Part shown: piece by piece, positions 4,854 to 48,968 of the stretch
Numbering within the stretch: the first letter of the stretch is position 1
Layout of the letters: the number at the start of each line of letters is the position of its first letter
Source: an uncultured bacterium
GTDB lineage: Bacteria > Acidobacteriota > HRBIN11 > JAKEFK01
Assembly: GCA_963837395.1 (NCBI GenBank)
Contig: CAWINI010000003.1
Coordinates: 771,805-835,804, forward strand
DNA: 64,000 nucleotides
Reading direction: 5' to 3'
The notes under the pieces: generated by a model
Database searches by the model: none
What the model was told of the DNA's origin: nothing
Seen by the model: only the letters and a program-made list of their open reading frames with translations
Made by a program: the position numbers and the translations under genes

Positions 4854-4886
4854 ATAACCACGGAGTCAAGGCGGCTCCGTGGTTAT
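4854..4886. terminator. Hairpin between convergent genes, probable bidirectional terminator; arms carry the ACCACGGAG repeat motif
   Basis: ATAACCACGGAG-N9-CTCCGTGGTTAT, a perfect 12-bp stem between the permease and dedA stop codons. Confidence 0.6.
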
Positions 4887-5542
4887 ATTTTTTTTGTCGC
4901 TGCTTTTTGCCTGCGATGTCGAATGATTTCAATGACGCTGGGCAGAATCGAAAGAATGATGATTGCAACGATCACGAGTGTGAAATTCCGTTTCACTACC
5001 GGCAATTTTCCGAAAAAGTAACCCAATAAAACGAAACTCACAATCCAGGCAATTCCTCCTATTACGTTGTATGAAAGGAATCGCACATATGTCATTTTCC
5101 CGATTCCTGCAACAAACGGCGCGAAAGTTCTAATGATCGGCATGAAGCGCGCAAGAATGATTGTCTTGCCGCCGTACTTCTCGTAAAACTCGTGGGTGCG
5201 GATTAAATATTCTTTTTTGAAGAATCGCGAATCTTCTCTGGCAAAAGCTTTCGGACCGATATAAGCTCCAATCCAATAATTAACCGTATCTCCGGCGATC
5301 GCAGCAATTGAAAGCACGACACATAAGACGACGGGATCCAACGCACCCGTACTTTCAGCAATCGCGCCACACGCAAACAGAAGTGAATCACCCGGTAGAA
5401 ATGGTGTTACCACGAATCCGGTTTCGCAAAAGATGATCAGGAAAAGTATGAGATACGTCCACGTTCCATAATTGCGGATCATCTCTCCAAGATGTGTATC
5501 AATATGAAGGATGAAATCGATCAGCTGATGTATGAGTTCCAT
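4883..5542 (-). CDS. dedA: DedA family membrane protein
   Basis: FCETG...[19 protein letters not shown] and [16 protein letters not shown] motifs. Confidence 0.93.
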
Positions 5543-5565
5543 GACGATGTCCTTAATTATTTTTG

Positions 5566-6095
5566 AATCACGGAAACACGGAATGCACTGAAATTCTATC
5601 TTTATTTTTATTGATTACAAGATAAACCGCTTATAACTAACGTTGGTTTCTTAAAATTCAAAAGCAGGCCCAATTTCAAGCCAGACGCCGTCAAGTATGA
5701 CTTCACCTGGGCAAAGTGAGCTGCATCAAAGTTATCAACGCTTTTAATCTCGACCACAACCGAATTATAAATAATGAAATCCATTCGATGTGTTCCCACA
5801 AGTTGTCCACGATGTCGTATTTCAAATGCTTTTGTTTTTCAAATGGTATTCCCTGGTAACTCAATTCCACTGCAAAAGCTTCTTCATAAACTGATTCCAG
5901 GTAGCCAGGCCCCAAAGATTTGTGTACTTCAATTGCGGCACCAATGATGCCTTCGGTCAATTCTTTGTAAACGAGTTCCATTCGTCATAACCAACCTTCC
6001 GCCTTTTTGATTAGCTACAAGTTTATTTTTCGTGGCTTTGTATGTCTGTTTTCCTGATTATATATTCTTTCCGTGTATTCCGTGTTTTCCGTGAT
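5566..6095 (-). mobile_element. Putative inverted-repeat-bounded cassette carrying a GxxExxY nuclease gene
   Basis: Left arm AATCACGGAAACACGGAATGCACTGAAA (5566-5593) and right arm TTTCCGTGTATTCCGTGTTTTCCGTGAT (6068-6095) are near reverse complements; gene-less copies at 24578 and 48882. Confidence 0.55.
5615..5981 (-). pseudogene. GxxExxY protein (PD-(D/E)XK nuclease superfamily) with two single-base frameshifts (artefact or decay)
   Basis: GPGYLESVY motif and D-F-I...VVVEIKS catalytic motif are split over ORFs 5703-5981 and 5608-5799. Adding one A near 5821 and one near 5631 gives a continuous 122-aa protein ending VIKRFIL. Confidence 0.85.
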
Positions 6096-7468
6096 CAATA
6101 AAATGGAAGGAAGTAAAACATAGCCGAAACTAGCACAGCATAAATAAGGAAGGCGATGAGTTCGTAGCCGAGGATTTCTTTGAATTCAATGCCTGCTGCA
6201 GTTAGCAATGGAATTGCCCAAAATGGCTGCAGCAAATCGGTCATCATATCTCCCCAGGCATACGCAACAACGATCTTATCGAAACTTACGCCGAGTGTTT
6301 TTGCAGCATGGATTACATACGGAGCTTCTACTGCCCATTTTGAACCGCCTGATGGTACGAAATAATTTACGATCCCGGAATACCAGTAAACAAACAACGG
6401 TAATGTCTGAGCATTTGCCACACGCACGAATGCATTGCCAATGACTTCCGAAAGTCCTGACCCTTTGATGATGCCGTACATTCCGGAATAAAACGGAAAC
6501 TGAAGCACAATGCTATATATGGTTCCCGCCGATTCTGCCGCAGCTTTCAAAACCGATGCTGGAGAAGGGTGAAGCAATATTCCCAAAGTCATAAAAATAA
6601 AATTGACGGTGTTGATCGTGATGCCTTGCCATCCGCGTGATGCGAAATTGAAATACAACCACACCAATCCCAATATTCCGATAATAAAATTCAAAACGTA
6701 TCGATAATCGATAAATTCTGCGAATCGGAATTTTTCGGTCACTTCTGGTTTGGGAGGCTTGAAGATTCCAAAATTTTCCAGTTTTTGCGGATCTATTTTC
6801 ACGCGTTGATTCGGATCTTTAGGATGCAACGCAATTGCAATGAGGGTCATTGTAATCACAACCAGAAGCGCAGCTAGAAGATTAAATGGATGGAAGATGG
6901 TTTGAGTCAGCGGAATGATTCCGATTTCTGCTTCCATAAAATGTTCTGGTGTTGCAACCAATATCGGAGCGGATGCGGATAAACCTGCATGCCATGTGCA
7001 GCCCATTCCGAAATACGCAACAGCAACAAGCAGCCGATAATCTACATCTTTGTGCTGGCGTGCCATATACTTCACAAGCACTGCAGATCCGATCAGGCTC
7101 AATCCCCAATTGATCAGCGCAAGTAACATTGAGCCTAATGCTGTAAGAGCAATGGCGCCGGTGGAAGTTTTTGGAAGACGCGCTATCCAATGCAAGAATC
7201 GATTCATCGCAGGTGAGACAACCAGGATGTAGCCGGTCAGCATGATCAGCGTCATTTGCATGCTGAACGAAAGCAATTCCCAAAAACCATCGCCCCAAAA
7301 ACGGATGCAATCTACAAGTGAGTGATCTGTAGCAACAAAAGCGAGCAAAAGAGTAATTAAGGTAAGAATGATTGCGATGGAAAAGGCGCTGGGAATCCAG
7401 CGTGAAGTCCAGTTGTTTAGACGAACCGCAAAGCTGCCGAGTTTGCTAAGGATTGTTGTGGGTTGCAC
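6095..7468 (-). CDS. atoE: Short-chain fatty acid transporter (AtoE family)
   Basis: GFWELLSFSMQM, WHAGLSASAP, FVPSGGSKW and AWGDMMTDLLQPFWAIP motifs. Confidence 0.88.
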   Translation of the reverse strand: MQPTTILSKLGSFAVRLNNWTSRWIPSAFSIAIILTLITLLLAFVATDHSLVDCIRFWGDGFWELLSFSMQMTLIMLTGYILVVSPAMNRFLHWIARLPKTSTGAIALTALGSMLLALINWGLSLIGSAVLVKYMARQHKDVDYRLLVAVAYFGMGCTWHAGLSASAPILVATPEHFMEAEIGIIPLTQTIFHPFNLLAALLVVITMTLIAIALHPKDPNQRVKIDPQKLENFGIFKPPKPEVTEKFRFAEFIDYRYVLNFIIGILGLVWLYFNFASRGWQGITINTVNFIFMTLGILLHPSPASVLKAAAESAGTIYSIVLQFPFYSGMYGIIKGSGLSEVIGNAFVRVANAQTLPLFVYWYSGIVNYFVPSGGSKWAVEAPYVIHAAKTLGVSFDKIVVAYAWGDMMTDLLQPFWAIPLLTAAGIEFKEILGYELIAFLIYAVLVSAMFYFLPFY

Positions 7469-12441: not shown

Positions 12442-15400
12442 TTACTGTACACAGACATTATCAACCAACATAGAATCGTTCTTTGCAGCGGCTCCGATGT
12501 TTGCTGATGGCAGTGCACCGGCTGGGCTAAAGCCTGTAATGACCGCGGTCCCATTGATTGTAACGTCATAGGTCGTGCCATTATAGACAATCGCAACAGT
12601 GTAGATGGTATTCGGATCTAGCGTAAAGATCGCTTTTGCTTTCTTTATAATCCCACCAGGTCCTCTTTGTTTTACAACCACTCTATCGCTACCTTCTCTG
12701 AATAGCACTTCCATCTGGTTTTTCTTATCGATACGATGCGTGTAGATCCAGTTTCTGGAGAAAATTCCACCAGTAAACTGAATAACGTACGTAAACGTAC
12801 CGGAAGAAGCTCCTGCGAAGGAGGAATCCGCAACACCCACAGCCTTTCTCTTTACTGGATCGAAATGCAGGAAGCCGTCACCAGGTTGCGTTACCGCTGG
12901 TTTCTCTTCGATCCATTCTCTGGTTGCATCGTTGAAGTCGTTGGAGTAGGTACAATTGTCAATAACATGCATTGCGACATCAACTGTCGGTGATGCTCCT
13001 GGAGCGTTTCCACTGATCTTGAGTTGAGCGAAGTAGTCACCTTCAGCAGCTACCTGGCTTGCGTCGAGTGTAACATCGACAACAACACTTCCGCCAGCAG
13101 GTACAGTTCCTTCTGATGGATTTTCACTTAACCAGGGTACGTCGCCACCGCCGCTCGCGCATCCTTCACCAGTGTTACGGTACAGATTGTCACTGAGAGG
13201 AGTATTGAAGTTAAAGAATCCACCATCAGTCCACACTTCTCCACCAGTAAAGGCGGTGGTGCAGAAGCCTGCGGTGTTCGCTTGGCGTGGTGAAGGTAGA
13301 GGATCTCCCAAATCTGCCCAGCTTCCACCCGGCCAGGAGGACAAATCGAGCCGCTGAACAGCGTCTGTTGCTTCAAAGAACCCGTTACCATTCTGATCAC
13401 CACCCATCGAATAAAGCGCGGTGTCGGTTGCGGACAATGCTACGTCAGCAACTGCGAGATCAAACGTCGGTTCAACTTCCCACGTATCGCTGGACATGTC
13501 ATATCGTTGTGTGAATGTTGAGTTCGCGCCAGGTGCGCTAGCACCCCAACCACCTGCGATGTAAACGAATGTGCCGGCCTGAGCTGATCCACCTTGGGAG
13601 ACTCCATCCGGCATAGCTGTACCGGTACCGGTCGATGTATCAGTAGCAATATCGTAGATATTTACTTCATTAGAAGTTGGAGGGCTGAAGTCATCATCAC
13701 CACCGATCATGTAAACCTTGCCATCAAGGGCGCCCATCGCTGCACCTTCAACAAAACGTGGCAGCGCTGCACCTGTCAACCAGGTATCGGTTGCGATGTC
13801 GTAGATGAAGAACTCATTACTGGTAAATGCACCATTTGCAACATAGATGCGGCCCTCGAAACAAACCGCGGACGGTGCTTCCGCTGGGTTCGGGTATGAA
13901 GCAAGCGAAGTCCAGGTATCAGTGTCCGCGTCATATCGCGCTACAGCACTGCTCAAGCCGAAACCGCTATCGACACCTGAAATGATGTAGAAGCTTTCCG
14001 GCGTCTCATCACATTGTGCATGACCGTAGCGGATTATTCCAAATGGTATAGGCGAACCAGGAATCCAGCCGCCGCCAGTTGGAGTGTTCCCTGGGAATAG
14101 CCCATTAAGCTTGGACTTCGGTGCGTTTCTCATGGACATCACAGAAGTCGGACCGGACTTCGCTAGCACTTTCGGATCGACTTTGTGCGTCTTTGCCTTT
14201 GGCAGATTCGGCAGCTTAAGTGCTGCGCCACCGCTTTCGCGGATCTTGTAGTCTGCATCGCCAGCGCCGGTATTGCTAATTGTGATCTGCTGAGTTACCT
14301 GGCCTCCTAAAGGAACCGTTTGATCTATCGAAGTTGGATCAACCGATAGACATGGAGCATCCAATCTCAGCGAAAAATCTACAGTTGTAGTTTGTCCTGC
14401 ATTCATTACAACGCCAGTCTGAGTCATTCCGATGTACCCAGGGGCACTGACCGTAACATCTACTGGACTGTTTGCGGCATCAAAGTACCACTGATAATGT
14501 CCACTAGCATCAGTCTCAAGCGTGTAGTCTGCGTTCGGACCATCAATAAACACAGTAGCACCACTGATCGGGCCACCAGCGGCATCGCACTGGCCTAATC
14601 CAGTTACGGTTCCGTCCAGTAAACCAAAGTTCGGGGGTACTGGAACATGCATTGTCACATTGACTTTCGGCGTTGCACCAGGAGCATTTCCTTTCACATT
14701 GATGTGCGCGAAGAAATCACCAGGTTGTAGCACCTGTGCGGCATCATAATTCACATCAATTACAGCTTGGCCGCCATCCGCAGGTATGGTTCCTTCGAAC
14801 GGATTTTCGCTTAGCCACGGAACGTCAGCTGCTCCGGCACAGCCTTCACCAGTAGTATGGTATTGATTCTTACCGTCAACGATGAAGCTAGAATTTAACC
14901 CGCCGGCACTCCACACTTCTCCACCAGTAACGGCAGTTGTGCAGAAACCAGCGTTGTTAGCAAGACGTGCTTCGGGAAGCGGATCACCGAGATCTGCCCA
15001 TGCACCGCTTGGCCAACCGGACACATCGAGTCGTTGAGCAGCATTGCTAGGATCAAAGAATCCGCCGCCAAACGCATCGCCACCCGCCTGATAGAGCGCG
15101 GTGTCAGAAGCGGCCAATGCGAAGTCAGCGTTTCCGAGATCAAATGTCGGCCCAACTTCCCATGTATCGCCGGACATATCGTAACGTTGGGTCATAGTTG
15201 AGTTGACACCAGGTGAACTGGAGTTCCATCCACCAACAACGTAAACAAATTGGCCAGACTGAACCATACCAGCATTGCTTACGCCCTCTGGCATCGGTGT
15301 TCCAGTGCCAGTCCAGGAATCAGTAGCAATGTCGTAGATATCTACTTCATTAGAGATTCCATCGGCTGGTTGGAAATCATCATCACCACCAATGAGATAA

Positions 15401-18400
15401 ATCTTACCGTCTAACGCACCCATCGCTGCACCTTCAACAAAGCGTGGCAGGGCGGCTCCTTGCAACCAAGAATCAGTTGCAATGTCATAGATGAAGAAGT
15501 CATTGCTGGTGAATGCACCATTTGCGACGTAAATGCGGCCCTCGAAACAAACCGCAGTCGGTGCTTCAGCTGGGTTCGGATAAGAAGCCAGCGAAGTCCA
15601 GGTATCAGTATCGGCGTCATAACGCTGCATGCTATTCGCCAAACCGAATCCGCTATCAACACCTGAAATAACGTAGAAGCTTTCGGGTGTGTCATCGCAC
15701 TGCGCATGCGCAAATCGGATGACTGGATTTGGCATATTTGAAGTCGAAGTCCAGCCAGAGCCATTCGGACCCTTATCGGGGAATAACGCTTTCAGCTTTT
15801 CCTTCGGCGCATCTTTCATGGACATTATTGAAGTCGGTCCAGTTTTTGCTTTCGCGTTGTGTTTGTTCGCCTGGGCCTTTGGCAACTTGGGATGTCTGAA
15901 TTTGAATGACAGACCATTGCCTTCCGTCAGCTCAAAGTTAGCATCGGAAGCGCCGTCATTTGTAATCGTAAACTGCTGCGTATCTTGACCACCGAACGGA
16001 ACGATATCTTCTAATTCAGTTGGATTCACCGACAAGCAAGCAGCATCTAATCGAAGTTCAAAATCGGTTGTGGTGGTTTGTTGCGGAGTGATGATCACGC
16101 CGGACTGTGACTCTCCGTTGTAACCATCTGCGCTTACTGTGATTGTTACTGGGCTATTCGCAGCATCAAGAGCCCATGTATAGAATCCATTTGCATCGGT
16201 TGTTAATGTGAAGTCCTCATTCTGACCATCGATAAACACCGTAGCGCCTTCAATTGGGCCACCAGGTGCATCGCACTGTTGTAATCCAGTTACCGTGCCG
16301 TTCAATGTTCCGAAGTTGGCTGGCAATGGAACATGCATTGTCACGTTCACTTTTTGTGCCGGATACGGGGTGTCAGTTTTGATTGTGAGATGTGCGAAGT
16401 AATCACCAGGTTGGTTTACCTGGCCTGCATCATAAGTAACATCAACGACTACTGAGCCGCCGCCTGCAGGAACTGTGGCTGTGGCCGGATTTTCACTGAT
16501 CCATGGCACATCAATACCACCACCCGCACAACCTTCACCGGTGTTATGGTACAGATTGTCCGAAATAGGAGGATTGAAATTGAAGAATCCACCATCGGTC
16601 CACACCTCTCCACCAGTAACGGCGGTAGTGCAGAAGCCTGCAGTGTTAGCCGAACGTGCACTAGGAAGTGGAGTACCAAGATCTGCCCAGGCACCCCCTG
16701 GCCAACCTGACACATCGAGTCTCTGCGCGGTGTCAGTAGCTTCGAAGAAGCCGTTACCATTCGCGTCTCCACCCATTACATAGAGCGCAGTGTCTGTGGC
16801 AGACAATGCATGATCAGAAACCGCAACATCAAACGATGGTCCAACTTCCCATGTATCGCTGGACATATCGTAACGTTGAGTGAAGTTTGAGTTCGAAGCA
16901 GGTGAGTTGACGTCCCAACCACCAGCGACGTAAACGAATGGTCCGGCCTGTGCTGACCCAGCATTGCTGACGCCATCTGGCATCGGCGAACCTGTGCCCG
17001 TCCATGTATCGGTAGCAATATCATAGATATCTACTTCATTAGAAATTCCGTCACCGGGGAAGAAGTCATCATCACCACCGATCATATAGACTTTTCCGTC
17101 TAAGGCACCCATTGCTGCACCTTCAACGAAGCGCGGTAATGTTGCACCAGCCAACCAGCTATCGGTTGCGATGTCATAGATGAAGAAGTCGTTACTAGTC
17201 CCTGCACCATTTGCGACATAAATGCGGCCCTGGAAACAAACTGCTGATGGTGCTTCGGATGCGTTCGGGTAAGAAGCAAGCGAAGTCCAAGTATCGGTGT
17301 CCGCATCGTATCGCGCTACAGCGCTGCTCAAGCCGAAATTAACATCGACACCTGAAATAATGTAGAAGCTGTCAGGTGTTTCGTCGCATTGTGCATGACC
17401 GTACCGGATTATACCGAATGGTATAGGCGAACCCGGGGTCCATCCACCACCGTTCGGCCTCTTCGGACCCTTCGATGGGAATAGTCCTTTAAGCTTCGAC
17501 TCCGGCGCACTCTTCATCGCCATCACAGAAGTCGGACCGGATTTCGCTTTTACTTTCCGATCGACTTTGTGTGCCTTTGCTTTCGGTAGGTTTGGCCCTT
17601 TGATCTTGAAGGAAACTAAACCGTTGCCTTCTTGAATTTCAAACGTGCCATCCGCATTACCATCATTGGTAATCGTGAGCTGTTGAGTATCTGTGTCTCC
17701 CAGATCTACTATGTCTTCCAGCTCAGATGGTGAAGCAACCAGATGACCTGTGCCTAACTCGAAGTTCTGCACAACAACGTCATCAGCTTGCACATCCACA
17801 TTTTCAGTATCAGATCCATACTGATTCTTGCTCGCCGTAAAATCGTGCGAGCCGGTCAACGTTGAGAACAACGTATAGAACCCATCATCAACGTTTGAAT
17901 CATTAGGAGTGGCGACTGTGTTAGCGTGATCACTTGGATTTTCATCGCTGGTAACAGTTGCACCATTCAGGCCTTGACCCGTATTTGAGTCATAGACGTT
18001 ACCAACCAACAGACCGCCGGGGATCGGGTCACAAGGACCAGCGCTGACATCGTCGACCCACATTGCTGTGTCATCGCCAAAAGCGTCTTGATGAACCAGG
18101 AATTTAAGACGGATCGTTTGTCCGGCGTACGGGGCTAGATCGACTGACCAATGCGTCCAACCAGACGTTTCGCAAACGTGGAAGATTGTTTGAAGGATAT
18201 TGCCGGATGTATCTGTAATATAAGCATCCTGCCAGTCGAAAGAAATCGAATCTGTGGTGAATTTCTTAGTCCAGAAGGTAAGCCCGCCTCCGCCACCTGG
18301 AACGGTGATCTGCTGATAGAAAGAACTGTCACCAAAGGGCTCGGGACCAGTGGCATCACCTGCTTGAGCGGAGAAGGCTCCTGAATGGTGTTCAGCGCCG

Positions 18401-20478
18401 GTTACGAATGGCGAGTTGCTTGTACCATCAATGACCCAACCGGTAAAGTCGCCGGTTTCAAAACCACCATTAGTGATGAATGAGTCAACACCATAGCCAG
18501 GCGCAGTGCAACCGGAATCCACTGTCAGAGCAAAGTCTTCAGTTGGATTCGCTCCTGGATCAACATCTCGTTGTTCTTCATTGTAGCCAGGACTGACTGC
18601 ATTCACATGGAATGTGAAGATAGTGCCTTCTGGCAGATCAACACTATATGTTCCATCGGCCGGATTTGTAAATATCGGGCTGCCCGGGAACGCATCAATA
18701 TCAATTCGTGCATACAGCGGCCAGCCATGTCCGGAACCATCAGTTACCGTACCGGTAACTGTAGCAAGTGGAGCTTGATCAAGCTGGAAGTCCTGAGTAG
18801 TTGTATTGCCAGCAGTAATGTTTACCGTTACTGTTTCCGGCAAATATGTAAAGGCTGAGGCGGTAACATCGTAAGAGCCTTCACACAAATCCATTGAATA
18901 ATTTCCGTTTGCATCAGTTGTTGTTGATTTATCAACTGCGCCGTCAGCATCAACATGAGCGCCCGCAATCGGTTGTGAAGTACCCGAATCTGTAACTGTG
19001 CCAGATATCGTACCGAGGTCACATATTGGCGACTGAGTCACTGCTTCCAATGCATCAATGCGGCCTTCACCCCAAACGTTATTATCAGCTGCTGTGCCAC
19101 CGCAGGATGTGTCATTCACATCGATCGCGATGCTATCAAGAATTGCGCGAGTTGCTGCAATGTCACGAACCAACGACGGTGCAGCTGACCACATTAGTGC
19201 GACAACGCCAGCAACATGAGGCGATGCCATAGAAGTTCCGCTAAACAGGGCATAACTGTTTGTTGGAACTGAACTGCGTACATTTACGCCAGGAGCTGCA
19301 ATATTTGGCTTGATTTCTCCACCAAATGCACCCGGGCCTCTGCTAGAAAAACCGGCAATAATATTATTAATGTCGTACGCAGCCGCGGCATATGAATTTA
19401 TGTAGTCACCGGGTGAGCCTACCGTATTGCAACCAGGACCGCTGTTCCCGGCCGAAAATTGCGGGAATATTCCACTCGCTTCCCAGGCATCCACTACCGG
19501 TTGATAAAATGGATCGCCAGGACCGCCGCCCCAGGAATTGTTTACAATGTGCGGCCGCTTGCTTGAATCAGGATTATTACCATTCAAATCGGTTGGAGCC
19601 AAAATGAACTGGCCGCAAGTGTTTAGTGCAAAATCGGAGCATGAATTCGTTTCACACCCTTTGCAACCCATGAATTGTGCATGTGGAGCTACGCCAATTT
19701 GATTTGTTCCGGGATCTCCATCATCACCAACCATCGTTCCCATGGTGTGGCTTCCATGACCGACGTTGTCGCATGGTGCGCCGCCACAAATATTGGAAGG
19801 ATCAAACCAGTTGTAGTTATGATCAAAATTTCCGCCGCCAAGATTGCCGCGATATTTTGCAACTAAAGCTGAGTGATTAAACTGGAACCCTGTATCAACG
19901 TTAGCTACTACAATACCTTCACCGCGATCATTAAAAGTACTCCAAACTTGCGGTGCTTGAATGTTGTCAATGTTCCATTCAGTGGTACCAGGAGTTGATT
20001 CTTGAATACCAGGAAGTGGTTTCGGTAATTGATAAACACGATCAGCAACAATTTTGTCAACATCCGGTCGTGCTGCAATTTCTTTCAATAATACGGATCC
20101 CGCATCTCTGACTTGAATTGTGTTTGCAATCCAGAAAGGAAAATACTTTACGCCAGTGGTAGCGAGAAATGCGCGAAGTCCTGCCTGACTCTGATCCGCT
20201 ACAGACCTTAAAGTTTGATAAACAAAATCACCGCGTTCTCTATCCTTCTTAATATTGAAGGCAGAACTTAGTTCTGCTTTTTCTTTCAACATAACCCAGA
20301 AGGTTGTTTTACCTTTGGATGATATTTCATCGAGAACTTGTTGCTCTATTTTTTGTGAGAGCTCTTTTGATAAGCCTTGATGACTGGCTTGAGTTGCGTC
20401 TGTTGTTTGGACTTGGAATCCCCAAACTCCAAACAAAAAGACGAAGAAAACAAAAAGAGTCAGGAACCGCTTACGCAT
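12442..20478 (-). CDS. Giant secreted S8 peptidase (2678 aa) with carboxypeptidase-regulatory-like and CBM-like domains, three tandem Ig/Kelch-propeller modules and the shared C-terminal domain
   Basis: Triad motifs VANVDTG, HGSHTMG and GTSMASPH; Kelch-type GG...Y/W repeats (VYMIGGDDD, VYVAGGW, LYVMGGD); AGGAGGGG RBS. Confidence 0.92.
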   Translation of the reverse strand: MRKRFLTLFVFFVFLFGVWGFQVQTTDATQASHQGLSKELSQKIEQQVLDEISSKGKTTFWVMLKEKAELSSAFNIKKDRERGDFVYQTLRSVADQSQAGLRAFLATTGVKYFPFWIANTIQVRDAGSVLLKEIAARPDVDKIVADRVYQLPKPLPGIQESTPGTTEWNIDNIQAPQVWSTFNDRGEGIVVANVDTGFQFNHSALVAKYRGNLGGGNFDHNYNWFDPSNICGGAPCDNVGHGSHTMGTMVGDDGDPGTNQIGVAPHAQFMGCKGCETNSCSDFALNTCGQFILAPTDLNGNNPDSSKRPHIVNNSWGGGPGDPFYQPVVDAWEASGIFPQFSAGNSGPGCNTVGSPGDYINSYAAAAYDINNIIAGFSSRGPGAFGGEIKPNIAAPGVNVRSSVPTNSYALFSGTSMASPHVAGVVALMWSAAPSLVRDIAATRAILDSIAIDVNDTSCGGTAADNNVWGEGRIDALEAVTQSPICDLGTISGTVTDSGTSQPIAGAHVDADGAVDKSTTTDANGNYSMDLCEGSYDVTASAFTYLPETVTVNITAGNTTTQDFQLDQAPLATVTGTVTDGSGHGWPLYARIDIDAFPGSPIFTNPADGTYSVDLPEGTIFTFHVNAVSPGYNEEQRDVDPGANPTEDFALTVDSGCTAPGYGVDSFITNGGFETGDFTGWVIDGTSNSPFVTGAEHHSGAFSAQAGDATGPEPFGDSSFYQQITVPGGGGGLTFWTKKFTTDSISFDWQDAYITDTSGNILQTIFHVCETSGWTHWSVDLAPYAGQTIRLKFLVHQDAFGDDTAMWVDDVSAGPCDPIPGGLLVGNVYDSNTGQGLNGATVTSDENPSDHANTVATPNDSNVDDGFYTLFSTLTGSHDFTASKNQYGSDTENVDVQADDVVVQNFELGTGHLVASPSELEDIVDLGDTDTQQLTITNDGNADGTFEIQEGNGLVSFKIKGPNLPKAKAHKVDRKVKAKSGPTSVMAMKSAPESKLKGLFPSKGPKRPNGGGWTPGSPIPFGIIRYGHAQCDETPDSFYIISGVDVNFGLSSAVARYDADTDTWTSLASYPNASEAPSAVCFQGRIYVANGAGTSNDFFIYDIATDSWLAGATLPRFVEGAAMGALDGKVYMIGGDDDFFPGDGISNEVDIYDIATDTWTGTGSPMPDGVSNAGSAQAGPFVYVAGGWDVNSPASNSNFTQRYDMSSDTWEVGPSFDVAVSDHALSATDTALYVMGGDANGNGFFEATDTAQRLDVSGWPGGAWADLGTPLPSARSANTAGFCTTAVTGGEVWTDGGFFNFNPPISDNLYHNTGEGCAGGGIDVPWISENPATATVPAGGGSVVVDVTYDAGQVNQPGDYFAHLTIKTDTPYPAQKVNVTMHVPLPANFGTLNGTVTGLQQCDAPGGPIEGATVFIDGQNEDFTLTTDANGFYTWALDAANSPVTITVSADGYNGESQSGVIITPQQTTTTDFELRLDAACLSVNPTELEDIVPFGGQDTQQFTITNDGASDANFELTEGNGLSFKFRHPKLPKAQANKHNAKAKTGPTSIMSMKDAPKEKLKALFPDKGPNGSGWTSTSNMPNPVIRFAHAQCDDTPESFYVISGVDSGFGLANSMQRYDADTDTWTSLASYPNPAEAPTAVCFEGRIYVANGAFTSNDFFIYDIATDSWLQGAALPRFVEGAAMGALDGKIYLIGGDDDFQPADGISNEVDIYDIATDSWTGTGTPMPEGVSNAGMVQSGQFVYVVGGWNSSSPGVNSTMTQRYDMSGDTWEVGPTFDLGNADFALAASDTALYQAGGDAFGGGFFDPSNAAQRLDVSGWPSGAWADLGDPLPEARLANNAGFCTTAVTGGEVWSAGGLNSSFIVDGKNQYHTTGEGCAGAADVPWLSENPFEGTIPADGGQAVIDVNYDAAQVLQPGDFFAHINVKGNAPGATPKVNVTMHVPVPPNFGLLDGTVTGLGQCDAAGGPISGATVFIDGPNADYTLETDASGHYQWYFDAANSPVDVTVSAPGYIGMTQTGVVMNAGQTTTVDFSLRLDAPCLSVDPTSIDQTVPLGGQVTQQITISNTGAGDADYKIRESGGAALKLPNLPKAKTHKVDPKVLAKSGPTSVMSMRNAPKSKLNGLFPGNTPTGGGWIPGSPIPFGIIRYGHAQCDETPESFYIISGVDSGFGLSSAVARYDADTDTWTSLASYPNPAEAPSAVCFEGRIYVANGAFTSNEFFIYDIATDTWLTGAALPRFVEGAAMGALDGKVYMIGGDDDFSPPTSNEVNIYDIATDTSTGTGTAMPDGVSQGGSAQAGTFVYIAGGWGASAPGANSTFTQRYDMSSDTWEVEPTFDLAVADVALSATDTALYSMGGDQNGNGFFEATDAVQRLDLSSWPGGSWADLGDPLPSPRQANTAGFCTTAFTGGEVWTDGGFFNFNTPLSDNLYRNTGEGCASGGGDVPWLSENPSEGTVPAGGSVVVDVTLDASQVAAEGDYFAQLKISGNAPGASPTVDVAMHVIDNCTYSNDFNDATREWIEEKPAVTQPGDGFLHFDPVKRKAVGVADSSFAGASSGTFTYVIQFTGGIFSRNWIYTHRIDKKNQMEVLFREGSDRVVVKQRGPGGIIKKAKAIFTLDPNTIYTVAIVYNGTTYDVTINGTAVITGFSPAGALPSANIGAAAKNDSMLVDNVCVQ
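12960..18020 (-). repeat. Three intragenic ~1.69-kb tandem modules
   Basis: Homologous anchor points at 17521, 15823 and 14137 (spacings 1698 and 1686 nt); near-identical peptide blocks recur three times. Confidence 0.9.
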
Positions 20479-24577: not shown

Positions 24578-24697
24578 AATCATGGAATCCACGAAATACG
24601 CGGAACATTAAGTTCTCCCCCTTATGAAGGGGGGGATGAAAGAGGGGAGTTGGAATGTTCAATTAATAATTTCAGTGCCTTCTGTGCTTCCGTGATT
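24578..24697 (+). repeat. Gene-less copy of the GxxExxY-type inverted-repeat element with a nested CCCCCTT/AAGGGGG palindrome
   Basis: Left arm AATCATGGAATCCACGAAATACGCGGAA, right arm TTTCAGTGCCTTCTGTGCTTCCGTGATT; inner palindrome at 24616-24636 framed by GAACATT...AATGTTC. Confidence 0.65.
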
Positions 24698-24740
24698 AAA
24701 AATAAGGAAACTTGTCATCCGCGGCCCTGAAAGCGAATTT

Positions 24741-26169: not shown

Positions 26170-27558
26170 CTAAAATTTTGTTGCGACTGGTTCTGAAAAC
26201 GAAGCGGACCGCGAGCGCGGTCTGAGGTCATATCGGGTCATGAAGTTTGTATCATAATTCCCATTTATAAAATCTTCATCTTGCAGAATTTTATGATGCA
26301 ATGGAATGTTGGTTTTTATTCCTTCAACAATCATCATTTCTAATGCGCGGCGCATTCGCGAAATAGCTGCTTTCCGAGTTGGTGAATGAACAATTACTTT
26401 TGCAATCATCGAATCGTAATAAGGAGAAATGACACCTTCTGCGTAAGCTGCAGTATCGACGCGCACACCCGGTCCACTTGGGGTGTAGAACGCTGTTACC
26501 CTGCCCGGTGAAGGCATAAAATTTCCTGGATCCTCTGCATTGATGCGGCACTCAATGCTATGCCCACGAATTTCAACCTGCTCCTGCTTGATTCCCAACT
26601 CCCTGCCGGCTGCAATCCGGATCTGTAAATATATGAGGTCCAGACTGGTGATCATCTCTGTTACAGGATGTTCGACCTGAACACGTGTATTCATTTCCAG
26701 GAAATAAAATCGGCCATGACGATCGACCAGGAATTCCACTGTCCCTGCATTCCAATAATTCACCGCACGTGCAACTTTCAATGCAGATTCGCCCATCTGG
26801 TTACGCAAATCCGGATCCAAACGCGTAGATGGTGCTTCTTCTATAATCTTTTGATGACGCCGCTGAATTGAACATTCGCGTTCGCCAAGATGAATCATGT
26901 TGCCATGTTCATCAGCAAGAATTTGAAATTCGATATGACGGGGGCGCTCTAAATATTTTTCCAAATAAATTTCTGATGCACCGAAAGTATTTTGAGCTTC
27001 ACGCTGAGCCATTCGAAATGCCGTAAAAAGCTCACCGGAATTATGTACAACCCGCATTCCTTTGCCACCACCACCGGCCGCCGCTTTCAAGATCACTGGA
27101 AAACCAAGCTCTTCCGCGATCCTTAACGCCTCTTCTTCCGTTTCAATTACACCCTTTGATCCAGGAATGATTGGAACTCCTGCTTCCGCCGCAATTTTGC
27201 GGGCCATCGCTTTGTCACCCATCATCCGGATCGCATGCGGACTTGGACCTATGAATTTGATGTGACATGTTTCGCAAATTTCTGCAAAATTGGCATTCTC
27301 TGATAAAAATCCATAGCCAGGATGGATCGCATCTGCACCTGTTACTTCCGCTGCAGAAATAATGTTCGGAATATTGAGATAACTTCCGATACTTTCAGGC
27401 CGTCCAATGCATACTTCCTCATCTGCGAAACGCACCGGCAGCGAATGACGATCTGCCTCTGAAAACACTGCGACTGTGCGGATCCCGAGTTCCTTGCAAG
27501 CAAGAATGATCCGGAGAGCAATCTCGCCGCGGTTTGCAATTAAAACTTTATTGAACAT
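26170..27558 (-). CDS. accC: Acetyl-CoA carboxylase, biotin carboxylase subunit
   Basis: [31 protein letters not shown] and [11 protein letters not shown] motifs. Confidence 0.97.
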
Positions 27559-27560
27559 AT

Positions 27561-27616
27561 ACGTAATACGTAAAACGTAAAACGTAATATTACGTTTTAC
27601 GCATTACGTTTTACGT
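27561..27616. repeat. Palindromic heptamer array (ACGTAAW)x4 + (WTTACGY)x4
   Basis: Two abutting 28-nt arms that are near-perfect reverse complements, between accB and accC. Confidence 0.9.
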
Positions 27617-27667
27617 AAGTCGTATTATGTCCTACGTCCTATGGAATTGCTCCATATGAGTTTCGAA

Positions 27668-28153
27668 TTAAGCCTTAATACTGAATAGAACTTCGCTGAA
27701 TTCTACCGGTTGGCCGTTTGGAATGTGGATTTTTGTCACTTCGCCATCAACATCAGATTCAATTTCGTTCATAATTTTCATCGCTTCTATAATGCAAATG
27801 ACCTGACCCTTGCGGACTGAGTCTCCAACTTCCACAAACGGAGAACCACCCGGACTCGATGATCGATAGAATGTGCCAACCATAGGAGAGTGAACTTCAT
27901 GAACCACTTCCGCAGATTCAGTTGCACCTTGCGCCGGAGCAGCTTCGGATGTAGCTGCTTGATCCTGACCATTTCCAGGAGCACCCTGGCGCAGCGGTGC
28001 GGAAATTGTTTCGGATTCCACGAGCGTTCCATGCTTGATCCGTAAACGATAATCAGCCTTCTGAATTTCAAATTCGCTGACATTACTCTCGCGCAAAAGC
28101 TTTATCAATTCGCGTAATTCATCAAGATTAATATCTTCAGGACGGTCCGACAT
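27668..28153 (-). CDS. accB: Biotin carboxyl carrier protein
   Basis: SPMVGTFYR and the [10 protein letters not shown] biotinylation motif. Confidence 0.97.
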
Positions 28154-40866: not shown

Positions 40867-40876
40867 GCATACTACA

Positions 40877-41005
40877 GAGGATGGGGGATAGAGAATGGAG
40901 AATGGAGGATTGAGAATGGAGGATTGAGAATGGAGGATTGAGAATGGAGGATTGAGAATTGTTAGCTCACTATCGTCAATCCTCTATTCTCTATCTTCCA
41001 TCCTC
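40877..41005. repeat. Heptamer tandem array (GAGAATG/GAGGATT, 12 units) followed by about 4 inverted units
   Basis: Read directly at 40877-40960; inverted CAATCCT CTATTCT CTATCTT CCATCCT at 40977-41004. Confidence 0.92.
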
Positions 41006-41007
41006 TT

Positions 41008-41913
41008 TTATTTCCGCGGGTGTGAACGCTGATACGTCTTCAACAATTGTTCTACGTTCAGGTGAGTATACTTTTGGGTTGTTGAAAGGCTGGCGTGGCC
41101 GAGAAGTTCTTGAATCCAGCGAAGGTCGGCACCGGCGTTAAGTAAATGGGTGGCAAAACTATGGCGGAAAGAATGTGGAGAAACGCGTTTTTGCATTGCC
41201 AGCTTCAACAAATACTGATTCAGAATTTGTCGAATTCTGGTTTCGCTCAAACGACTGCCGTGCAAATTCAAAAAAATCCATTCAGGAGTTTGCTTATCGA
41301 TTAACTCATGCCGCCTGCTCAAGTAACGTTTAACCGCAGATGCAGCAGTTGATCCGAAAAATACAGTTCGTTCTTTCTTACCTTTACCTGTAATCCGCAT
41401 CACTCCCGATTCCGGATCCAGATCGCGCAACCGCAACCCTGCAATTTCACTGACACGCATTCCGGTCGCGTACAAAAGTTCAAAGATTGCATGATCCCGA
41501 TCCCCTTTCGCTGTATCTTCAAATTCAAAATCCAGGAAACTATTGATTTCATGAACCTGAAGAACACCTGGTAATTTCTTTGGCAGCCGCGGGCTTTTTA
41601 CTGCCTTTGCAAAATTTTGAGCAACATAATTTTGCCTGCACAAAAATCGGAAGAATGAACGTAGACAGGCTAATTTCCTTGCGATACTGGCGCGGTTAAA
41701 TTTCTGCTGATACAGGTGATTGATAAATCCGCGGATCGCAAGTAAATCAAGATCGCTGACAATTGAATCATCATCTATAACATCTTTGCCAAGATACTCA
41801 TTTAAGAAACCACAAAACTGCTGCAGATCTTTCATGTAGGCAAGAATTGTGTTTGCCGAATATCTTTTTTCAATCCGAAGATGTGATTCAAATTCGGAAA
41901 GATACTTTTGCAC
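41008..41913 (-). CDS. xerC: Tyrosine recombinase XerC
   Basis: LLYATGMRVSE, TGKGKKER, HSFRHSFATH, LGHASLSTTQKY; in the dprA-topA-trmFO-xerC context. Confidence 0.9.
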   Translation of the reverse strand: MQKYLSEFESHLRIEKRYSANTILAYMKDLQQFCGFLNEYLGKDVIDDDSIVSDLDLLAIRGFINHLYQQKFNRASIARKLACLRSFFRFLCRQNYVAQNFAKAVKSPRLPKKLPGVLQVHEINSFLDFEFEDTAKGDRDHAIFELLYATGMRVSEIAGLRLRDLDPESGVMRITGKGKKERTVFFGSTAASAVKRYLSRRHELIDKQTPEWIFLNLHGSRLSETRIRQILNQYLLKLAMQKRVSPHSFRHSFATHLLNAGADLRWIQELLGHASLSTTQKYTHLNVEQLLKTYQRSHPRK

Positions 41914-41926
41914 GACAACTATAATA

Positions 41927-43273
41927 CTACATGAAGATTGAAGATGGAGAATTGAGGATTGAAAACTGATCTGCGAATTGGCGAATGGAAGCTAAGGCCC
42001 GTTCAACGAGTAGTTGTTTCTTACGCTGCTTATCTTTGATCATTTGAAGATCCGGGGCATGGAGCAAGCCGAATGTAATATTCATCGGTTGAAAGTGGTC
42101 GGGATCTGCATTGGAAATGTAATGAGCAAGAGCGCCGATAGCCGTTTCCGGTGGCGGAACATGCAAAGGCAGGTCGAGTGCCAGCCGCGCAGCATTGATC
42201 CCCGCAAGCAATCCTGAAGCAGCAGAATCCACATAACCTTCTACGCCGGAAAGTTGTCCAGCAAAAAAGAGCTGAGGATTGGTGCGGGTTTGATATGTAG
42301 GAAGCAAAATTTTCGGAGCATTCAAGTAAGTATTTCGATGGATCCAACCGTAGCGGATAAATTCAGCATTCTGAAGTCCGGGGATCATCCGGAACACACG
42401 TGCTTGTTCAGAAAAACGCATGCTGGTCTGAAATCCCACCATATTATAGTGTGATGCTGCCAGGTTATCCTGTCGCAACTGAACCACCGCAAATGGACGC
42501 CGGCCAGTAACAGGATCGATCAAACCGATTGGCTTCATTGGACCAAAACAAAGCGTCTTCTTTCCGCGCCGGGCCAGTTCTTCAATCGGCAAACAGCCTT
42601 CAAAAAATATTGCCTTTTCGAATTCCTTCAGCGGATGCGTTTCAGCTTTGAGCAATGCATCATAAAAACTGTCATACGCCTCACGACTCATCGGACAATT
42701 CAGATAATCATCACTGCCCTTTCCGTATCGGGAGGCTGCAAAAACAATGGAGCGATCAATTGAATCTGCATCAACGATCGGTGAAATTGCATCGTAATAA
42801 TATAAATGAGGGGATTGGCTAAATTCTTTGATTGATTCTGCCAAAGGTTCCGAAGTCAGCGGCCCGGTTGCAATGATATTAATTCCATCTTGCGGAATCG
42901 AAGTCACTTCTTCACGTATCATTCTCACATTCGGTAGTTTTCCCAAAGTTGCTTGAATTTTTTCAGCAAACACATCGCGATCAACTGAGAGCGACATTCC
43001 GGCTGGAACTGCACTTTGATCAGCCGCAGCGATAATCAAAGACTGGAGGATGCGCATTTCCTCCTTTAACAATCCTGGCGCATGAAGCAGATCGTTGGAT
43101 TTTAAGGAATTGCTGCAGACAAGTTCAGCAAGATTGTCTGTAACATGTGCTGGAGTTTTGCGCCCAGGCCGCATTTCATAGAGATCTACGTCCAGCCCGT
43201 GCCTGGCAATCTGCCATGCCGCTTCTGCGCCGGCAAGTCCGCCACCAATGACACGTATTTTTGCTTTAGGCAT
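41927..43273 (-). CDS. trmFO: Folate-dependent tRNA (uracil-54) methyltransferase TrmFO (Gid)
   Basis: IGGGLAGAEAAWQ, ELVCSNSL, YNMVGFQT and AGQLSGVEGYVDS motifs. Confidence 0.95.
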   Translation of the reverse strand: MPKAKIRVIGGGLAGAEAAWQIARHGLDVDLYEMRPGRKTPAHVTDNLAELVCSNSLKSNDLLHAPGLLKEEMRILQSLIIAAADQSAVPAGMSLSVDRDVFAEKIQATLGKLPNVRMIREEVTSIPQDGINIIATGPLTSEPLAESIKEFSQSPHLYYYDAISPIVDADSIDRSIVFAASRYGKGSDDYLNCPMSREAYDSFYDALLKAETHPLKEFEKAIFFEGCLPIEELARRGKKTLCFGPMKPIGLIDPVTGRRPFAVVQLRQDNLAASHYNMVGFQTSMRFSEQARVFRMIPGLQNAEFIRYGWIHRNTYLNAPKILLPTYQTRTNPQLFFAGQLSGVEGYVDSAASGLLAGINAARLALDLPLHVPPPETAIGALAHYISNADPDHFQPMNITFGLLHAPDLQMIKDKQRKKQLLVERALASIRQFADQFSILNSPSSIFM

Positions 43274-48877: not shown

Positions 48878-48881
48878 GTAG

Positions 48882-48951
48882 TCACGGAAACACGGAATTC
48901 ACGGAAATAATTTTTATTGATTCTTTCAGTGCCTTCCGTGTTTCTGTGATT
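48882..48951 (+). repeat. Empty (gene-less) copy of the GxxExxY inverted-repeat element
   Basis: TCACGGAAACACGGAATTCACGGAAA-N16-TTTCAGTGCCTTCCGTGTTTCTGTGATT; the right arm differs from the 5566-5593 arm at only 2 of 28 positions. Confidence 0.85.
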
Positions 48952-48968
48952 CAAGAACGGGTTATCAT

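Follow-up and report, generated by a model that had tools for sequence, protein, structure and literature searches.

A Candidate Palindrome-Bounded GxxExxY Nuclease Element and Its Gene-less Hairpins in an Acidobacteriota Contig

A stretch of 64,000 nucleotides of contig CAWINI010000003.1 (assembly GCA_963837395.1, positions 771,805 to 835,804), from an uncultured bacterium of the Acidobacteriota, is referred to here as the window. It carries a gene of the GxxExxY/PDDEXK_3 nuclease family that is enclosed by the inverted arms of a tandem-unit repeat, and the same repeat is found twice more in the window as hairpins without the gene. Positions 5563-6095 are read as a palindrome-bounded nuclease element with internally deleted gene-less derivatives, comparable to miniature transposable elements bounded by inverted repeats (MITEs) or to REPINs, the hairpin-forming doublets of repetitive extragenic palindromic (REP) sequences. 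We give this reading about an even chance. The GxxExxY family probably belongs to a repeat-associated system that the searched literature does not describe, and the system is possibly mobile. The sequences retained in their loops suggest that at least some of the gene-less hairpins arose through internal deletion of filled elements. By analogy, the logic of the system resembles that of REPINs and their REP-associated tyrosine transposases (RAYTs), or of insertion sequences (IS) and their MITEs, with few coding copies and many gene-less copies in short intergenic spacers.

Structure of the Element

The element and its two neighbours comprise the following features, given in window coordinates.

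5615-5981, minus strand: GxxExxY/PDDEXK_3 nuclease gene, 122 codons in the repaired reading, frameshifted
6068-6095, minus strand: upstream arm of the filled element, three tandem CACGGAA units, minus-strand sequence ATCACGGAAAACACGGAATACACGGAAA
5982-6067, minus strand: 5' leader from the upstream arm to the start codon, holding the conserved ribosome-binding region GGCGG(G)AAGGTTGGTTATG
5594-5614, minus strand: 3' trailer from the ancestral stop codon to the downstream arm
5563-5593, minus strand: downstream arm of the filled element, minus-strand sequence TTTCAGTGCATTCCGTGTTTCCGTGATTCAA
6095-7468, minus strand: atoE-like short-chain fatty acid transporter gene (PF02667), upstream neighbour, co-directional with the GxxExxY gene
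4883-5542, minus strand: dedA-like gene (PF09335, VTT domain), downstream neighbour, co-directional with the GxxExxY gene

The first-pass annotation, made from the letters of the window, had placed the GxxExxY gene between inverted arms, and this is confirmed at 6068-6095 and 5563-5593. The arms had been described as unique sequences; each is found to be an array in which a unit of about 9 nt, with CACGGAA as its core, is repeated three times in tandem. The arm ends have the form (A/G)TCACGG...CCGTGA(T/C), and the element, a single insertion, lies between housekeeping genes. The outermost base of the upstream arm doubles as the last base of the atoE stop codon (TGA, 6095-6097), and 20 nt separate the end of the downstream arm from the dedA start codon. 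The leader is similar in length and sequence in a paralog (L007) and is shorter in an ortholog (L004). No promoter or terminator signal above background was found. The element has neither attC core sites (RYYYAAC...GTTRRRY) nor a cassette array beside an integrase.

The GxxExxY gene of the window is split over two frames (open reading frames (ORFs) 5703-5981 and 5608-5799) and has no intact ORF. Alignment with five close homologues reveals two separate 1-nt deletions, each in a run of A, near 5835 and near 5633, in place of the single frameshift that had been proposed. The ancestral stop codon is 5615-5617. The repaired protein matches PF13366 PDDEXK_3 (E 9e-39, 132.9 bits, cutoff 22) and TIGR04256 GxxExxY (E 4e-39, 133.5 bits, cutoff 35), and it keeps both GPGYLESVY, the GxxExxY motif, and MDF...VEIK, the D...ExK of the PD-(D/E)XK fold. 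Since the element is old and the protein strongly constrained, as described below, the frameshifts in the window either arose very recently or are assembly errors in homopolymers. The sole independent assembly, Logan contigs L002 and L003, breaks inside the gene and spans neither frameshift site.

Gene-less Hairpins in the Window

Two copies of the same repeat minus the gene are present elsewhere in the window, as had been claimed.

48881-48954: gene-less hairpin of the same repeat, arms 48881-48907 and 48924-48954 with three units each, 16-nt loop
24578-24700: second gene-less copy, more degenerate, arms 24578-24606 and 24670-24700, 62-nt loop

The hairpin at 48881-48954 sits between a gene for a tetratricopeptide repeat protein (stop 48877) and an ATP-binding cassette (ABC) transporter gene (start 48969), and it folds with an energy of -35.2 kcal/mol (z -6.4). 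In the copy at 24578 arm B is poorly conserved (9 mismatches in 27 positions), and the loop holds a nested, unrelated palindrome, CTCCCCCTTATGAAGGGGGGG (24607-24669). The 16-mer CACGGAAACACGGAAT has five matches in the window at up to three mismatches, compared with 0.72 expected, and none of 100 shuffles reaches five; chance recurrence of the arm motif in the window is excluded. The best inverted-repeat score across the GxxExxY gene is 15, compared with 7.5 ± 2.2 for 43 control genes of the window. With the covariance models of Rfam 15, nothing in the window reaches the gathering score, and just sub-threshold microRNA-like hairpins with E above 0.1 are obtained.

Thirteen nucleotides are common to the trailer of the filled element (5604-5616, plus strand ATTTTTATTGATT) and the loop of the 48881 hairpin (48908-48923). 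A sharing as good is reached by 4 of 5000 shuffles and by 2 of 20,000 random 16-mers from the window. The trailer remnant lies antisense to the genes that neighbour this hairpin.

A polar order of the two arms, B to A, had also been described. It is mostly a consequence of palindromic symmetry, since the order of the arms of a palindromic repeat reads alike on either strand, and it fails to generalise. The sole polar mark is a variant unit, CACTGAA. All three copies of the window carry it in the gene-proximal downstream arm; the ortholog L004 has it in the upstream arm, and still other copies have it at other places. A rule by which the order of the spacers would be kept between arms was tried as well and failed across hairpins.

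Homologues with the Same Arms

The closest homologues were picked by protein search, and the contigs around them were then read. The closest named ones belong to metagenome bins of Acidobacteriota. The syntenic locus of a relative (PPase-atoE-GxxExxY-dedA, L004) has an intact gene and both arms. A second locus, DUF4097/GxxExxY/HSP20, is seen in three organisms (L005, L006, and L008); in a third locus the gene follows a spermine-synthase gene (L007), and in a fourth it is placed between an ABC ATPase gene and atoE (L160). Inverted arms of CACGGAA units are present in seven of seven copies, namely those of the window, L004-L008, and L160, which represent four distinct loci. The six proteins are 57-91% identical to that of the window (69-91% without L160), and the best inverted-repeat scores across the close-homologue genes are 14-21.5 against the control value given above. 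The conserved leader GGCGGGAAGGTTGGTTATG is common to all close homologues save the more divergent L160 copy.

Paralogs at different loci bring arms, leader, and trailer along together. As judged from these loci, the arms and the GxxExxY gene are inherited, and copied to new loci, as one unit. The earlier suggestion of a recurring unit is thus upheld by three other loci with the same arms and, as shown below, by distant homologues with analogous unit arrays.

The outermost arm pairs are ATCACGG..CCGTGAT in the window, GTCACGG..CCGTGAC in L004 and L007, and AGCACGG..CCGTGCT in all arms of L160. The arm ends are genome-specific with compensatory changes. They are alike within one genome, most clearly in L160, and this likeness hints at exchange between copies. 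The arms also seem exchanged between the window (5563-5593 and 6068-6095) and L004 (2938-2966 and 3400-3430). The upstream arm of the window resembles the reverse complement of the downstream arm of L004, and vice versa, with the orientation of the gene unchanged. One way in which this could have arisen is by repeated inversion between the arms.

The atoE-dedA Junction and the Age of the Element

Further relatives (L160 and L162) were reached via AtoE homologues. The atoE-dedA junction is filled with an intact gene in L004. In L160 (AtoE 71% identical) the junction contains a gene-less hairpin of 3 + 3 units with an 81-nt loop, and in L162 (AtoE 79% identical) a two-unit solo arm, TTCCGTGTTTCCGTGAT, is found beside dedA, adjoining unrelated GC-rich hairpins. 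The filled/empty polymorphism predicted for this junction was therefore found. In the orientation of the neighbouring genes the L160 loop encodes LDLGLQLEFNAPTL, which matches LKLGLLLNFKKPTL, conserved at the C terminus; a score this high is reached by 4 of 1000 shuffles. The similarity of this loop to filled elements is not significant at the nucleotide level, and the remnant is seen at the protein level only. The loop appears to be a deletion product and not a never-filled site.

The L160 junction hairpin and the 48881 hairpin look like internally deleted filled elements that retain the 3' end. These retained pieces fit the IS/MITE-like or RAYT/REPIN-like relation of filled and empty forms that had been put forward for the window. 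The direction of change at the polymorphic junction, as far as these loops record it, is loss.

Over atoE, the element, and dedA, the window and L004 are collinear and 81.5% identical in nucleotide sequence. Between the two, the synonymous divergence (dS) of the GxxExxY gene is 1.06 and its ratio of nonsynonymous to synonymous divergence (dN/dS) is 0.044; the values for atoE are 1.04 and 0.054, respectively. With a dS equal to that of atoE and a dN/dS of 0.04, vertical inheritance under strong purifying selection is indicated. The age of the element, estimated in this way, is that of the split between the window and L004 lineages, and the hairpin remnant in L160 suggests that occupancy of the junction is older than this split.

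Dispersed Gene-less Copies

The two gene-less copies of the window lie in 64 kb. In Gemmatirosa kalamazoonensis the gene-side hairpin is found at at least 40 places on a 1.1-Mb replicon and at 30 on another, for a total of at least 70 hairpin places in 2.1 Mb; GxxExxY places number two. Six hairpins are present in 90 kb of this genome that were read, and two of these directly flank the single GxxExxY gene. The chance of such a placement is about 4e-5 at the seen hairpin density (an arithmetic estimate). The arm of Sphingomonas parapaucimobilis occurs at about 16 places, mostly unannotated, on seven replicons, and at each of the three places that were read a composite hairpin without the gene lies downstream of whichever annotated gene is nearest. 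The claim that gene-less copies are dispersed is thereby sustained, and they greatly outnumber the genes in Gemmatirosa and Sphingomonas.

In metagenome sample Ga0193706 two gene-less copies (L045 and L070) and a filled copy (L076) have identical ends. Loop families recur in separate contigs (L030/L070 and L069/L093). The gene-less hairpins have no T-run and are therefore not intrinsic terminators.

Repeat-Flanked GxxExxY Genes across Phyla

The loci listed below were sampled by protein similarity alone and not by their arms. In total, lineage-specific unit-array repeats clearly bracket the gene in at least 13 of 16 independent GxxExxY loci, which represent about nine phyla, whereas the 43 control genes give background values. 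The inverted-repeat scores of the flanked loci are 14-30, compared with the control mean of 7.5 ± 2.2, and most of the repeat units have a CACnGA-like core in common. The arrangements are as follows.

L140: inverted arms of CAGGAAA units, AGCAGGAAAGCAAGAAACCCAGGAAAACAGGAA
L152, Bacteroides finegoldii: inverted arms of three CACAGAGGA units, between radA and the next gene
L153, Bernardetia: inverted arms of CACAGAGA units
L155, Sphingomonas: inverted arms of CGCGAAG/CGCGAGG units, 92% complementary, between fabD and fabG
L132, Lentisphaerae: 30-nt inverted arms of CGCCAAG units, 100% complementary, between methyltransferase and ResIII-domain genes
L136, Thermosinus, and L156, Gemmatirosa: a complete hairpin on either side of the gene
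L150, L154, and L157 (Prevotella, Fusobacteria plasmid, and Persicobacter): direct unit repeats flanking the gene

The genes that flank the L132 element are probably mod and res, from a restriction-modification system. Database calls of GxxExxY genes are often 10-35 residues too long, since the ORF reads on into a repeat arm. The overrun enters the downstream arm in L132 (1501-1938) and L155 (571-999), and it enters the upstream sequence, including the upstream arm, in L140 (1501-1971).

A single metagenome scan with the arm pattern gave 120 matches. Among these, L076 and L083 hold GxxExxY genes that are 34-41% identical to that of the window inside CACGGAA arms, and L026 holds a GxxExxY gene with a different inverted repeat. 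About 50 of the matches belong to another, unrelated repeat, TAGGGACAGTAGAAAATCACGGAAACACGGAAATCACGGAAACCGTGATTTTCG..., that has no inverted partner, and were set aside, as were other matches that are satellites or chance coding matches. The TAGGGACAGTAGAAAATCACGGAAACACGGAAATCACGGAAACCGTGATTTTCG... repeat is located at about 50 loci among L012-L131 (for example L012, L022, and L024), is highly repeated, and comes from a small number of metagenome samples (Ga0209788, Ga0209781, Ga0056123, and others); it resembles an unrelated mobile-element end.

A scan with arm A of a collection of representative genomes, which does not include the source genome, found solely a tandem hairpin array in Pedobacter chinensis (NZ_QPKV01000006.1, L001 6600-7300). 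The array consists of units of about 197 bp, each composed of a CACGGAA-type hairpin and a CCCTCTCTTCAAGGAGAGGG hairpin, and a tRNA gene lies about 400 nt away. Metagenome contig L114 (1-4544) is dense in toxin-antitoxin-type genes (PIN, HicA, PHD-like, and Uma2) and also carries CACGGAA-unit hairpins.

Phage records are nearly free of the GxxExxY family (one haloarchaeal virus), and a scan of viral contigs with a 28-protein alignment gave no match. Just 8 plasmid records out of 72,556 have a member of the family, and six or more of these eight are replicons of more than 400 kb.

The GxxExxY Protein

The AlphaFold model of the intact ortholog has a mean predicted local distance difference test score (pLDDT) of 93.5. 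The top structural neighbours from Foldseek are Cas4 SSO0001, lambda exonuclease, MGME1, and AddB, and a Holliday-junction resolvase appears lower in the list. The GxxExxY motif and the D, E, and K of PD-(D/E)XK are invariant among 28 homologues. The protein models as a minimal Cas4/RecB-like nuclease. Defence-system models gave weak Cas4-like matches only, and a sequence search of the PDB gave no match. The search of Pfam and NCBIfam detected no HUH/Y1 (IS200-like) or other transposase, the sole matches being PDDEXK_3 and GxxExxY.

The GxxExxY/PDDEXK_3 family comprises 18,387 representative clusters (50% identity, E up to 0.001). Many members consist of two tandem GxxExxY domains with 250-295 residues (for example P0259-P0264). 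These fusions suggest that the single-domain form acts as a dimer, and a dimer would suit a symmetric substrate. The function of PF13366/PDDEXK_3 was listed as unknown in a superfamily survey from 2012, and the terms are essentially confined to that survey. The name GxxExxY is found in just three papers of the searchable literature, which holds nothing on the biology of the family. A full-text search of incomplete coverage found no account of an association between GxxExxY genes and repeats, and an earlier mention elsewhere is possible.

Other Repeats and Genes in the Window

A second family of unit-array palindromes, with units GGAGGATTGAGAAT/GAGAATG, is located at window positions 40876-41006 and 41928-41962. 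A hairpin of this family lies directly downstream of a xerC-like recombinase gene (41008-41913), and a partial inverted arm lies between the xerC-like gene and a trmFO-like gene. The xerC-like gene with these palindromes is the sole one with a high inverted-repeat score among the 43 control genes. A third unit-array palindrome (27559-27630) has units ACGTAAAA with arms that are 90% complementary, and it occupies the spacer of ORFs 26170-27558 and 27668-28153.

Short hairpins of the C5/G5 type include the CTCCCCCTTATGAAGGGGGGG palindrome at 24607-24669 and GCCCCCAGCGTAAGCTGGGGG and similar ones at L162 3866-4080. One is nested in the loop of a CACGGAA hairpin, and several fill the decayed atoE-dedA junction of L162. 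They are probably another REP-like family. An ORF of 2678 residues (12442-20478) contains a subtilase domain, carboxypeptidase-regulatory-like domains, and many Kelch repeats.

Discussion

The closest parallel is drawn with the RAYT/REP-REPIN systems (TnpA-REP), in which a short palindromic repeat likewise stands in inverted copies on either side of a small enzyme gene and is dispersed as many gene-less intergenic copies. Vertical inheritance under purifying selection and the lack of target-site duplications are also shared. The enzyme here is a PD-(D/E)XK hydrolytic nuclease and theirs is an HUH/Y1 transposase. The arms here are tandem arrays of 7-11 nt units, whereas theirs is a single REP stem with a GTAG/CGTC tag; several paralogous filled copies are found per lineage instead of one; and protein and repeat show no obvious covariation here. 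The IS/MITE pairs share a coding form and a short gene-less form with common terminal inverted repeats, and the gene-less forms here keep internal end sequence of the filled form in the same manner. The GxxExxY element differs in that it has no DDE or other known transposase and no target-site duplication, and in that its filled copies, instead of being recent and identical, are ancient and syntenic, with purifying selection like that on host genes.

Homing endonuclease genes, free-standing or intron-borne, are also small nuclease genes at a defined site with filled and empty orthologous alleles, and a hydrolytic nuclease would in the same way depend on host recombinational repair. I-Ssp6803I is a homing endonuclease with the PD-(D/E)XK fold. 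The proposed target here is a multicopy palindrome and not a unique conserved gene site, and the homology arms would be just about 30 nt. Cas4/RecB-family nucleases provide the closest solved folds and the weak profile matches, and their catalytic D, E, and K are present. The GxxExxY protein differs from them in its 122 residues, the absence of evident Fe-S cluster cysteines and of a CRISPR context, and a TM-score of about 0.55. The intervening sequence (IVS) in the 23S rRNA of Coxiella, with its S23p protein (PMC4990558), is a small ORF in inverted repeats able to form a long transcript stem; the GxxExxY element is located outside rRNA and encodes a different protein family, many of its copies are gene-less, and direct repeats flank the gene in some lineages.

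According to the favoured reading, a dimeric nuclease would recognise the unit arrays, or an extruded hairpin or cruciform, and break the DNA there. The break would then be mended by host recombination from another copy, with the arms of 27-35 nt as homology. By this route the gene could be copied into empty hairpins, the arms would be kept alike within a genome, and the gene would be maintained. On this reading the element sits stably in operon spacers and is read through with its neighbours, under strong purifying selection. A PD-(D/E)XK enzyme is hydrolytic and cannot join DNA alone, so spread to new loci needs host functions.

Several observations weigh against this reading. The host functions for spread are assumed only, and the action of the nuclease on the repeats is one that we infer. 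Covariation of protein identity with unit sequence was sought and none was found, and on these comparisons the family departs from the RAYT-REP pattern that a specific pairing of enzyme and substrate would predict. Between the two arms, unit variants and spacers often lack compensation (40% Watson-Crick), and the evidence for concerted evolution of the arms comes from short sequences. Every filled site seen is old, and a recent transposition event was not caught. Eight elements inspected by eye show no direct duplication of a target site outside the arms; their A/T-rich flanks merely lengthen the inverted repeat. The window holds further unit-array palindromes without a GxxExxY gene. Some CACGGAA-unit hairpins of L114 are gene-less, and two enclose an identical 128-aa PHD-like antitoxin gene.

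The antitoxin gene, held twice in the same hairpin family, is one reason to consider that the hairpins are an independent REP-like repeat spread by other machinery, the loops of which are fragile or permissive sites for small genes. The GxxExxY nuclease would then serve the cell in some unrelated way, for example in repair or defence. The foreign palindrome nested in the 24578 loop, the other unit-array palindromes of the window, the failure of unit sequence to follow protein identity, and the Pedobacter array, which has no GxxExxY gene within the 8 kb examined, are all in keeping with such landing sites. We nevertheless hold this explanation to be unlikely. It does not account for the bracketing of at least 13 of 16 independent GxxExxY loci in about nine phyla, for the two of six Gemmatirosa hairpins at the one gene of the 90 kb, or for arms, leader, and trailer that travel together in paralogs at different loci. 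Moreover, the fragments of gene or trailer kept in gene-less loops point to loss from filled elements and not to empty pads awaiting insertion. That loss might instead be the entire history of the gene-less copies. The GxxExxY elements would then be the sole mobile entity, and each gene-less hairpin the scar of an independent loss that never copied itself. The 3' remnants in two gene-less hairpins, the solo arm of L162 as a further stage of decay, and the frameshifts of the window copy agree with this, but compact, similar hairpins exceed the genes 35:1 in Gemmatirosa, and to produce them by loss would take dozens of independent insertions, with near-identical deletions afterwards. The loop families shared by different contigs (L030/L070 and L069/L093) raise the same difficulty, and the resident genes are long-lived under strong purifying selection. 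We regard decay as a complete explanation as improbable.

An explanation at the RNA level, raised as an alternative in the first-pass annotation as well and here assigned an equally small probability, is that the arms pair in the operon transcript and the stem closes off the passenger ORF as an insulator or intervening sequence, with processing of the stem by a double-strand RNase. Expression of atoE and dedA would be undisturbed, the arms would be kept for RNA pairing, and the gene-less hairpins would be stabiliser or processing elements. The minimum-free-energy fold of the 551-nt element does pair both arms, although its z-score is just -2.3. Elements are mostly co-directional in very short operon spacers (fabD-fabG, mod-res, and permease pairs), the outermost arm pairs change in a compensatory manner, and the gene-less hairpins are stable (z -6.4) and, without a T-run, are not terminators. 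Direct-repeat or double-hairpin flanks (L136, L150, L154, L156, and L157), however, cannot close a stem around the gene, and unit variants and spacers frequently change without compensation. Pairing in RNA also leaves both the nuclease as the specific passenger and the dispersal of the hairpins unexplained.

The palindrome-bounded nuclease element with gene-less derivatives is the reading that is carried forward. A broader proposal, which we put forward tentatively and consider somewhat doubtful, is that bacteria have a second class of palindromic repeat systems, independent of RAYTs, whose enzymes are the GxxExxY proteins. In these a dimeric PD-(D/E)XK nuclease would recognise unit-array hairpins or cruciforms and promote break-induced "palindrome homing" of its own gene together with the upkeep or spread of gene-less hairpins across many phyla. 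To our knowledge, HUH transposases alone are established so far as enzymes of REP-like repeats, and this proposal, if true, would extend the few proteins tied to them by a further class of enzyme. It would account for an oddity of annotation, in which small GxxExxY genes are wedged in housekeeping operons (fabD-fabG, radA, and mod-res), and also for gene calls that overrun into the repeat arms. The link to dispersed unit-array palindromes gives the large GxxExxY family, annotated without a function, a concrete and testable substrate.

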